Notes under the pieces: generated by a model
The model's database searches: none
Seen by the model: only the letters and a program-made list of their open reading frames with translations
What the model was told of the DNA's origin: nothing
Program-made: the position numbers and the translations under genes
Shown here: positions 14,871 to 16,738 of the stretch, piece by piece
Numbering within the stretch: the first letter of the stretch is position 1
How the letters are laid out: every line of letters begins with the position of its first letter
Source: Promethearchaeota archaeon
GTDB lineage: Archaea; Asgardarchaeota; Lokiarchaeia; Sigyniarchaeales; Promethearchaeaceae
Direction of reading: 5' to 3'
DNA: 32,000 bases
Assembly (NCBI GenBank): GCA_016933055.1
Contig: JAFGBS010000009.1
Location: 540,001 to 572,000, forward strand

Positions 14871-15336
14871 TAAAGAAATTACAGATTATAATGAAATAAA
14901 AGGCATAATTCAGAGACAAGAGTATCTAACTCTTGCAATGAGTAGATTAAACCGACCATATCTTGTATCCCTTAATTATGGTTATGATGTAAAACAAAAG
15001 TGTTTCTATTTTCATTGCGCCAGTGAGGGGAAAAAAATAGATTATCTGTATTCAAATCCAAGAATATATGGGCAAATTTTAGAAAACCTCAAATATTTGG
15101 AGGGAAAATGTTCTTATGCATACCGATCCGTTCAATTTGAGGGTGAAGTTTCATTTGTAGAAAAAGATTACGAGAAAAAACATGCTTTACAATTAATGGT
15201 AGACAAATTAGAAATTCCCGCTCTTATTAATAAAACTAAAGAGAAGTTTATGACGGATTCAGCAATTGAAAATGTGGTAATTGGAAAAATCAACGTGACA
15301 AAATTTTCGGCTAAAGAAGAAAAGTTAACAAGTTGA
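14842..15336 (+). CDS. Pyridoxamine 5'-phosphate oxidase-like FMN-binding protein (NimA-like)
   Basis: RRFDKEI, PYLVSLNYGY, YFHCASEGKK, YRSVQFEG; ATG 14842 preferred. Confidence 0.88.
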   Translation: MEKYHLRRFDKEITDYNEIKGIIQRQEYLTLAMSRLNRPYLVSLNYGYDVKQKCFYFHCASEGKKIDYLYSNPRIYGQILENLKYLEGKCSYAYRSVQFEGEVSFVEKDYEKKHALQLMVDKLEIPALINKTKEKFMTDSAIENVVIGKINVTKFSAKEEKLTS

Positions 15337-15384
15337 TAAATGAGAGAAAAAAGAATAATTTGTATTTTACTTAAATTTAGTAAT

Positions 15385-15621
15385 TTATTCTCCTTCAAAA
15401 TCGGATGGGAATACTGTAATTCGTTTCAATTCACCCTTGGAGTCCCCTTTTGTTTTGCGAGGTAATTTATCCAAAATTTCTTGGACCCCTTGGGCAACCT
15501 TGTTATCTAAGTATTCATAAACCATGTCTTTTGCTTCAGCGGAGATTCGAATGCTTTGATCTCCTACAGCGAATAGATCCTTTATCTTTGAGCTTCGGAT
15601 ATATTTTACAGTGTAAGGCAT
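15385..15621 (-). CDS. Atypical histone-fold protein (alpha3-truncated type)
   Basis: SKIKDLF (alpha1), RISAEA (L1), amphipathic alpha2, KRITVFPSDF (L2 R-x-T-x4-D). Confidence 0.72.
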   Translation of the reverse strand: MPYTVKYIRSSKIKDLFAVGDQSIRISAEAKDMVYEYLDNKVAQGVQEILDKLPRKTKGDSKGELKRITVFPSDFEGE

Positions 15622-15928
15622 TATTTTTCACTTTATTATTTTATCTTAGTTTAATTCAATTATTTTTTAAAATAATTAAGATGTGTTAGTATCTTGAATA
15701 TTTAAATATATGCCCCAAAACATCGACAAAATTCAAAATCTGTTGCCGAATTAACACGAGGTGGTGTTATATTGATGGAATTTTCCTTTACAGAAATCTC
15801 TGCTTAATACTCAAAACCTAACGATTTTTTCTCAATTTCGCAGAGATAGAGAAAACTATGAAAGATCTTCATTACAATTTAATTTTGGAATCAGTTTTTG
15901 ATTTATTATACCCAAAATCACTTATTTT

Positions 15929-16162
15929 TTACTTATTTGGAGATTGATTTATCAATTGCTTTTTCATAGTTTTTGAATAAATAATTGATGTCACAATTAA
16001 AATAACAAAAAGAACGATTGAAATAACTGTATATATGTAAAATTCAGTTGATTTTTTCTCAATTGCAGAACGGATTGCCTTATATAAAGGATAGATTAAC
16101 AAGAGCCAAGATAATCGAAAATACGTATACGAGAACACACTTCGAGACCGTGATTTACTCAT
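15929..16162 (-). CDS. Small hypothetical membrane protein (2 TM)
   Basis: 77-aa ORF, ATG start, two hydrophobic segments flanked by basic residues; co-oriented 16 nt downstream of the Zn-finger gene. Confidence 0.55.
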   Translation of the reverse strand: MSKSRSRSVFSYTYFRLSWLLLIYPLYKAIRSAIEKKSTEFYIYTVISIVLFVILIVTSIIYSKTMKKQLINQSPNK

Positions 16163-16178
16163 CTTAGAATCAAACTAT

Positions 16179-16379
16179 TCAGTGGATTCGAAATAACCTG
16201 GTGGAATCCAATTTTTGAATTTCACCACATTTTGGACATTTGTAATGTTTATTATCAGTCTTTAAGGATTGAACACACTCGAAACAGACAGGTGCATCAC
16301 ATACACAATAATGCATGGTGGTTATGTCCTTAGATTTTTTACAGACCATGCACATAGACATATCTGAATTGTTAGACAT
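16179..16379 (-). CDS. Small RING-like zinc-finger protein
   Basis: CMVC...HYCVCDAPVCFEC...CPKC; ATG 16379 gives 66 aa. Confidence 0.75.
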   Translation of the reverse strand: MSNNSDMSMCMVCKKSKDITTMHYCVCDAPVCFECVQSLKTDNKHYKCPKCGEIQKLDSTRLFRIH

Positions 16380-16534
16380 TATATAATATTGATTTTTTAC
16401 ACCATAAAAGTTTTGCATCAATATAAGAGAAAGATTTTTAGTTGTTCACTCAATTGTTCTCTTGGTGACAGAAAATTAGTGAAGAACCGCAATTTCCCCC
16501 AATACCATCATTAGGAGAATCCATTAAAAAAAAC

Positions 16535-16738
16535 ATGATCGAAAAAAAAACAAGTGTTTTAGAATGTGAAAATTGCGGTAGAAAGTTCAAACGACCGTTT
16601 GAAGTCGGAGATTATGTGTATGTGAAACTAGTGGGGAAAAATTGCCCCCAATGCAATAAAACCAATTACACTATTATCCAGATCTATGGTGAATGGGTAA
16701 AAGCGAACCGTAAAGAACGAAAAAACTCGTTGTTTTAG
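16535..16738 (+). CDS. Small zinc-ribbon protein (conserved-archaeal type)
   Basis: CENC..RPFEVGDYV..CPQC..IYGE. Confidence 0.8.
   Translation: MIEKKTSVLECENCGRKFKRPFEVGDYVYVKLVGKNCPQCNKTNYTIIQIYGEWVKANRKERKNSLF

Follow-up and report, generated by a model that had tools for sequence, protein, structure and literature searches.

A probable HLoC-family histone-fold protein in a Lokiarchaeial genome, carrying a basic family-signature insertion before L2

The locus and its surroundings

The window considered here is a stretch of 32,000 nucleotides from the genome of an archaeon of the Lokiarchaeia, and the feature of interest within it is an open reading frame on the reverse strand, running from ATG to TAA (stop codon at 15385-15387), whose 78-residue product is very probably a histone-fold protein of the HLoC family (Table 1). 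Sequence comparison confirms that this is a real gene under strong purifying selection, since the finding of 14 close homologs of 65-92% identity and 77 representative clusters, together with low dN/dS, implies that the frame is more than a chance occurrence. Values of dN/dS lie between 0.01 and 0.06 in those ortholog pairs for which dS is unsaturated; the comparison with the same-genus ortholog was left out because its dS is saturated. The flanks, which include a putative promoter and a possible terminator, would be compatible with a monocistronic archaeal gene.

Table 1 Features of the HLoC-type gene and of its product, in positions of the window.
Feature	Position	Strand	Basis
HLoC-type histone-fold gene	15385..15621	-	ORF; 50-member family profile match E=4.6e-33
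Oligo-T run, possible archaeal terminator	15343..15355	-	30-45 nt past stop; read from sequence
AT-rich upstream region, putative promoter	15622..15715	-	TATA-like stretches at 15697-15710 and 15660-15679; read from sequence
alpha1, residues 10-16, S-K-I-K motif	15574..15594	-	AF2 helix 10-16
L1, residues 17-27, ends I-R-I-S	15541..15573	-	aligns on V-S of nucleosomal L1 (hhalign)
alpha2, residues 28-51 (24 residues, net charge -4)	15469..15540	-	AF2 helix 28-51
Basic Gly/Lys signature loop, P54-RKTKGDSKGE-L65	15427..15462	-	family conservation, beta-bridge 55/65, deletion scan
L2, K66-R67-I-T69...D74 (RxTxxxxD)	15400..15426	-	aligns on GRKT...D of FtF and QRKK...D of nucleosomal histones
alpha3 stub, residues 72-75, then 3 residues and stop	15397..15408	-	AF2 helix 72-75; chain ends at 78

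Adjoining the gene, on the forward strand, are ORFs for a GNAT acetyltransferase (PF00583; 14343-14870) and a PNPOx-like flavoprotein (PF12900; 14830-15336), which overlap one another by 41 nt, while on its upstream side (15929-16421 on the reverse and 16535-16738 on the forward strand) lie genes for a small 2-TM protein, an 80-residue Cys-rich zinc-ribbon/RING-like protein and a divergent 67-residue zinc-ribbon protein. The three upstream genes are kept alongside HLoC in the same-genus locus L015 only, where the PNPOx neighbour is also retained, and comparison of the fetched loci revealed no linkage of either the GNAT or the PNPOx-like gene to HLoC in other genera. A connection between HLoC and histone acetylation is thus unsupported, and since conservation of the neighbours stops at the genus, the use of operon structure or synteny as a clue to HLoC function was dropped. 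The region 15000-16200 occurs as identical pieces in a hot-spring metagenome run of 2017 (X2) and in a sediment metagenome of 2021.

Profile searches of the window genome found this single copy of HLoC, a 59-residue ORF resembling its N-terminal part, and five PF00808 histones. There was no match to PF09123 (DUF1931) in this genome and, using a dedicated FtF (face-to-face) profile, no FtF histone; the dedicated profile was built because a PF09123 search across the phylum had mostly picked up nucleosomal histones. The 59-residue ORF (G000:C35:21965-22144; L007:1486-1665) matches the HLoC profile with E=5.8e-5 over its N-terminal two-thirds (alpha1-L1-alpha2), is without loop, L2 and alpha3, and stops one stop codon before an in-frame sulfatase-like gene; it might be a fragment, or else a minimal paralog. 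Elsewhere in this genome (G000:C6:330234-330746; L001:1477-1992, also L085) a nucleosomal-type histone (PF00808, residues 10-67) and an aEF-1beta exchange domain (PF00736, residues 85-171) follow one another in one open frame that has no stop between them. The family's other 13 genomes have their histone and aEF-1beta matches at separate places, the aEF-1beta frames being of roughly 100-110 residues, and the shared frame could have arisen through true fusion or loss of a stop codon, or be a quirk of the assembly.

Membership of the HLoC family

The family was named in a preprint by Cho et al. of July 2026 (bioRxiv 10.64898/2026.07.02.735847), which describes HLoC.1 and HLoC.2 from Lokiarchaeum ossiferum B35 and HPsC from Promethearchaeum syntrophicum MK-D1. 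There the family is independently classed as a histone (one figure legend labels it a ‘face-to-face histone’), is stated to be confined to Loki and its relatives (Hel, Sigyn), and is then set aside, being “excluded” from further analyses. Supplementary Tables 2 and 3 of the same source list HLoC.1, HLoC.2 and HPsC along with 13 other entries, and the segment L-P-R-K-x-K-G-x-x-K-G-E-L-K-R-I-T is present in all of them. Its Supplementary Table 1 puts the share of HLoC orthologs in the proteomes of four cultured Loki strains (iBAQ) at 2.4%, 2.0%, 0.93% and 0.21%; the supplement, in the part accessible, contained no PTMs on HLoC.

On the evidence of sequence the window gene is an ortholog of HLoC.1, HLoC.2 and HPsC, and so a new member of this family. 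The locus L012 encodes MK-D1 HPsC exactly, and the window protein is 63.5% identical to it; the locus L011 holds the complete B35 HLoC.1, read from an internal Met, to which the identity is 55%. The 14 proteins returned by a word-indexed search ran from 65% to 100% identity; the window's own protein ranked first, and one is annotated as from a Promethearchaeota MAG. An exhaustive profile search supplied the 77 representative clusters, all with E<=1e-3 and 48 with E<=1e-10. The named proteins share with the window protein their length class (76-79 residues), an identity of 55-64%, their lineage, the signature segment and the truncated C-terminus; the window protein comes from a different genus of the same family. 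They differ from it in being more basic (pI 9.4-9.7, as against 7.9) and in having I-Q-x-x after the Thr of L2 where the window protein has V-F-P-S.

Some of the matches obtained were not accepted. Several very long repeat proteins (P0046, P0059 and others) matched repeatedly to profile positions 13-41 only, and these were regarded as spurious helical-repeat matches; a WD40 protein (P0084) was set aside as being weak (E=2e-4) and belonging to a cluster that also contains a bacterial protein. No viral relatives were found in IMG/VR.

Histone fold and localisation of the insertion

An earlier sequence-only reading of this stretch had picked out a set of histone hallmarks, comprising S11-K12-I13-K14 in alpha1, R25-I-S-A-E-A30 in L1 and R67-x-T69-x4-D74 in L2, together with a truncated alpha3 and a basic insertion ahead of L2, counted there as 12 and here as 11-12 residues, all of which have held up. 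K12 and K14 line up with the S-K-V-R that is near-invariant among FtF histones. In full, L2 reads R67-I-T69-V-F-P-S-D74, and within the family R25 is conserved in 92% of members, R67 in 76%, T69 in 94% and D74 in 76%. The chain does indeed end four residues past D74, leaving only the short helix given in Table 1.

Profile comparisons made use of three alignments: 50 members of HLoC (A2), FtF/alpha3 histones of Heimdall-type genomes (A3), and nucleosomal-type histones including the window genome's five (A4). With the loop intact the support from sequence is modest, the hhalign probability against histones being about 40-60%. Against the nucleosomal histones HLoC gives 40% (P=3e-4, 64 columns), co-linear along the whole chain, with one 8-residue gap that falls within the loop and with K-R-I-T...D lying on Q-R-K-K...D; against the FtF histones it gives 43% (P=2.5e-4, 39 columns), reaching from alpha1 to mid-alpha2. 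As a calibration, FtF against nucleosomal histones gives 97% (P=7e-11, 59 columns). When columns 55-65 are deleted from the HLoC alignment, both comparisons extend over the full length, rising to 92.8% (P=3.9e-7, 58 columns) for the nucleosomal and 88.7% (P=2.6e-6, 54 columns) for the FtF histones, and R67, T69 and D74 then fall on the R-K-T...D hallmark in both. In a control using ten other or overlapping 11-column deletions, the score rises only where the deletion overlaps 45-65, with its maximum at 55-65, and deletions elsewhere lower it (P between 5e-4 and 8e-3). Given that only the 55-65 deletion yields a full-length, high-probability histone match, these alignments indicate that the insertion is real and is localised at residues 55-65.

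A predicted structure was obtained using AF2 with the 50-sequence alignment (pLDDT 76.5), replacing a poor first model based on 14 near-identical sequences (pLDDT 58); its helices, together with a beta-bridge joining residues 55 and 65, are those listed in Table 1. The top Foldseek matches to this model are all histone-fold chains, with E>1 in each case, and in an exhaustive VIA-align search most of the top 50 are likewise histone-fold chains, including HTkC (9F2C; Z 4.0, rmsd 2.5 Å, 57/58 residues) and HBb (8CMP; Z 3.6, 55/58). These values of Z are low (<5), as commonly happens when an obligate dimer is compared as a single extended chain, and enrichment and coverage were therefore given more weight than Z itself. 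A histone fold is therefore what hhalign, the AF2 model and the structural matches all predict, as the sequence-only reading had supposed, and between them they support a form of that fold having a 4-residue alpha3 stub and an alpha2 of roughly 24 residues.

Direct searches returned little, and much of what they did return lay below threshold. Pfam and NCBIfam scans of the window protein gave no model at threshold, weak hits to GntR (E=0.079) and MMSDH families being noise. PF00808 does not match the protein even at E<=10, the protein is absent from the genome's five PF00808 matches, and within the family PF00808 matches only 2 of 50 members, at E-values of at least 0.043. A phmmer search of the PDB using the window protein produced a single match, HMk (1F1E; E=0.75), while the designed armadillo repeats that topped the PDB profile search were judged to be spurious low-complexity helix matches. 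Sub-threshold sequence matches were to CENP-X, PF00808, DUF1931 and HmvA, and the neighbours of HLoC according to a protein language model carry PF00808.

The sequence-only reading had presented the protein as a variant, and in this respect it has to be revised: the window protein is no idiosyncratic form but belongs to a conserved family, of which, from the alignment, the insertion at residues 55-65 is the signature rather than some local oddity. Information content averages 2.97 bits over loop residues 52-65 and 3.09 bits over K-R-I-T-[IV] (residues 66-70), as compared with about 2.2 bits in the helices. The signature, L-P-[RK]-x-x-[KR]-G-x-x-K-G-x-L-K-R-x-T, occupies residues 53-69 of the window protein; in 49 of 50 stand-alone members the span from P54 to T69 comes to exactly 16 residues, and P54, G59, G63, L65, T69, R25 and A30 are each conserved in at least 92% of the family. 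The net charge of the loop across the family is +3 to +5, with K or R found at positions 14, 25, 55, 58, 62, 66 and 67 in 80-96% of members (84% at position 14; 68-84% across the alpha1 positions). The loop probably forms a rigid basic beta-hairpin. The median pI of the family core is about 9.6, the window ortholog lying at the low end of the range with its pI of 7.9, acidic alpha2 (net -4) and acidic C-terminus.

Comparison with known histones

According to Schwab et al. (2024, PMC11390915), alpha3-truncated histones have an alpha3 of 3-4 residues, an alpha2 that is 4-5 residues shorter than in nucleosomal histones, and the motif RxTxxxxD. In terms of architecture HLoC agrees in every respect, namely fold, short alpha3, short alpha2 and RxTxxxxD; in the model, P54 would close alpha2 some 4-5 residues short of the point at which, in the alignment, the nucleosomal alpha2 ends. 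The likeness to FtF histones (HTkC, 9F2C; HVO_0196/D4GZE0) extends to S-K-[VI]-[KR] in alpha1 and to their being stand-alone, abundant proteins. HBb/Bd0055 (8CMP) similarly shares with HLoC the alpha3-truncated fold, the alpha1 lysines and an RKT-type L2, but it is bacterial and has no loop insertion, and its action as a DNA-bending dimer is experimentally established whereas HLoC is known here from sequence and a predicted model. Nucleosomal histones (HMfB/HTkA type, PF00808) have in common with HLoC the co-linear alpha1-L1-alpha2-L2 arrangement, the L1 Arg and the R-x-T...D of L2; they differ in their 10-residue alpha3, their four-helix-bundle residues, their longer alpha2 and their lack of the loop, while HLoC, unlike them, falls below the PF00808 threshold.

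The proposal that the protein is of Bd0055/FtF type rather than HMf type therefore stands in part. As regards architecture it is sound, HTkC and HBb being aligned over 57/58 and 55/58 residues respectively. In sequence, on the other hand, HLoC with its loop removed is no closer to the alpha3 histones (P=2.6e-6) than to the nucleosomal ones (P=3.9e-7; alpha3 against nucleosomal, 7e-11), so that it is architecture that carries the words “rather than HMf type”. The relation to FtF is a remote one (hhalign 43-60% with the loop and 89% without it), and the specific likeness to FtF also has its limits, since beyond the truncated alpha3 the residues of the FtF tetramer interface are not conserved: no counterpart of the FtF dimer-dimer pair (R41 and N45 of D4GZE0) was found in HLoC, nor does a conserved Arg or Asn close alpha2. 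The FtF alignment has an invariant N-G-R-K-T and a near-invariant Arg, whereas HLoC has an invariant Leu two residues before R67, where the FtF Asn would be. The 11-residue basic insertion before L2 sets the two families further apart.

Distribution of HLoC and FtF histones

When the HLoC and FtF profiles were run on the same 400 genomes of the Asgard phylum, HLoC was found in 29, all belonging to the class Lokiarchaeia and none to any other class. The two families prove to be nearly mutually exclusive (Table 2), with only 3 of the 400 genomes containing both. In f3, all 5 genomes of genus g9, which have HLoC, are among the 9 genomes of that family that have no FtF histone. The complementarity is strong, but only about 3-4 independent phylogenetic contrasts underlie it.

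Table 2 Occurrence of HLoC and FtF histones by family (genomes with a match/genomes searched).
Family	HLoC	FtF
f1 (family with MK-D1 and L. ossiferum loci)	13/13	0/13
f2	1/1	0/1
f3, whole family	5/135	126/135
f3, genus g9 only	5/5	0/5
f4	2/4	3/4
f5	3/3	0/3
f6	2/2	0/2
f7	2/2	2/2
All other families	none	most

No flanking genes were common to the g9 HLoC loci and the FtF loci of sister genera, and the syntenic position of the g9 HLoC locus in the sister genera held neither an HLoC nor an FtF gene. As HLoC and FtF thus occupy unrelated loci, the pattern, so far as can be judged from the sequences, looks like the reciprocal presence of two genes rather than the divergence of one in situ. Archaeal FtF histones have been described as generally tailless (PMC11390915). 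Spot checks of the proteins of f3, a sister family, showed typical FtF histones having a short Lys-rich tail, and in L066-L068 (G234, G269 and G173) this is a short Lys/Ala-rich N-terminal tail (M-A-K-K...).

Doublets and domain fusions

Besides the stand-alone proteins, tandem HLoC doublets occur (P0019, P0026), and among metagenome proteins doublets are also found fused to TIR_2, with or without TPR (P0015, P0018, P0057), and to SAP (P0017, SAP together with two HLoC domains); several of the doublets have a shortened loop in one of their two halves. Single HLoC domains occur fused to LRR (P0051) and, with a weaker match, to NACHT (P0077). The natural doublets point to pairing of HLoC with HLoC, and the SAP fusion to a setting that involves DNA or chromatin. 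From the TIR, LRR and NACHT fusions it would seem that the domain has been reused for recognition within signalling or defence-like proteins, while the TIR, SAP and LRR fusions suggest that it has also been reused for recognition of DNA or chromatin.

Proposed function and alternatives

The reading that we favour, with somewhat more confidence than doubt, is that HLoC is an abundant, non-nucleosomal DNA-binding dimer, i.e. a nucleoid protein that stands in for the FtF histone. On this proposal HLoC would form a handshake homodimer, with L1 and L2 paired at either end as a DNA-binding site; the basic beta-hairpin would enlarge each such site, and the alpha1 lysines would flank it. The lack of alpha3 would exclude extension into a hypernucleosome through the usual four-helix bundle, and it is this that suggests a non-nucleosomal role, in which the protein might bend, bridge or coat DNA and, in the Lokiarchaeia, fill the niche that FtF histones occupy in other Asgard archaea. 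It must be admitted that the near-neutral pI of 7.9 and the acidic alpha2 and C-terminus of the window ortholog count against a nucleoid protein, and that the TIR, LRR and NACHT fusions would also fit a protein-interaction or sensor module.

Such a module, not binding DNA at all, in the manner of TAFs, CENP-X or DUF1931 proteins, and having the loop as a docking or modification site, is an alternative that we consider improbable. Some prokaryotic histone-fold groups do lack the DNA-binding residues (PMC11390915), and the pI of the window ortholog and the fusions to signalling domains speak for it. Against this, HLoC has kept the canonical DNA-contacting residues (L1 Arg in 92%, L2 Thr in 94%, alpha1 K/R in 68-84% of members), most members are basic (median pI about 9.6), a SAP fusion exists, and an abundance of 1-2% of the proteome, on the figures in the preprint's supplement, fits a nucleoid protein. 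Less probable again is that HLoC is not a histone but some unrelated small helical protein, resembling histones through convergence or only by the artefact of weak matches. The absence of any Pfam or NCBIfam match, the E-value of 0.75 for the best PDB sequence match, Foldseek E-values that are all >1 and the pLDDT of 58 for the 14-sequence model might all be taken in that sense, but in the co-linear, full-length hhalign alignments R25, R67, T69 and D74 coincide with hallmark positions of histones, the deletion scan is specific to 55-65, most of the top 50 structural matches are histone-fold chains, and the preprint reached a histone classification independently.

A further possibility, to which we attach about the same low weight as to the interaction module, is that HLoC acts as a capstone, pairing with nucleosomal-type histones (the HLoA/HLoB class) and so ending the growth of the hypernucleosome and limiting particle size. 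It would be in keeping with this that HLoC is without the alpha3 needed for the four-helix bundle, that the same genome has five nucleosomal-type histones, that HLoC is no further in sequence from nucleosomal than from FtF histones, and that in an AF2-multimer screen described in the preprint (bioRxiv 10.64898/2026.07.02.735847) all 11 Loki histones, HLoC among them, fall in the cluster of prey that interacts with histone baits. However, an alpha2 that is about 5 residues short would be expected to put the two L1-L2 pairings of a heterodimer out of register, the tandem doublets (P0019, P0026 and the fusions) point to HLoC-HLoC pairing, and an FtF-like role is suggested by the complementarity with FtF histones, whose action involves no nucleosomal partners. 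A fuller version of the same idea, in which HLoC heterodimerises or stacks with nucleosomal-type Loki histones and stops their growth while the basic hairpin clamps the exiting DNA, giving discrete particles of defined size, seems a shade less probable still; were it true, such HLoC-capped particles might represent a step towards the closed nucleosome of eukaryotes.

Significance for the Lokiarchaeia

The preprint (bioRxiv 10.64898/2026.07.02.735847), in its accessible portions, reports only the existence, abundance and distribution of HLoC. Set against those portions, the localisation of the insertion and its constraint, the failure of the FtF interface test, the near-exclusivity with FtF and the domain fusions seem to be new here. 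In cultured strains HLoC accounts for up to 2.4% of the proteome, yet it was left aside by the sole paper to have named the family. Its fixed basic hairpin, among the most constrained parts of the protein, is placed where histones have their L1-L2 DNA-binding site. Taken with the near-exclusivity of HLoC and FtF, this constraint leads to a testable hypothesis, namely that HLoC may be a nucleoid protein that replaces the FtF histone and has an enlarged DNA-binding site.
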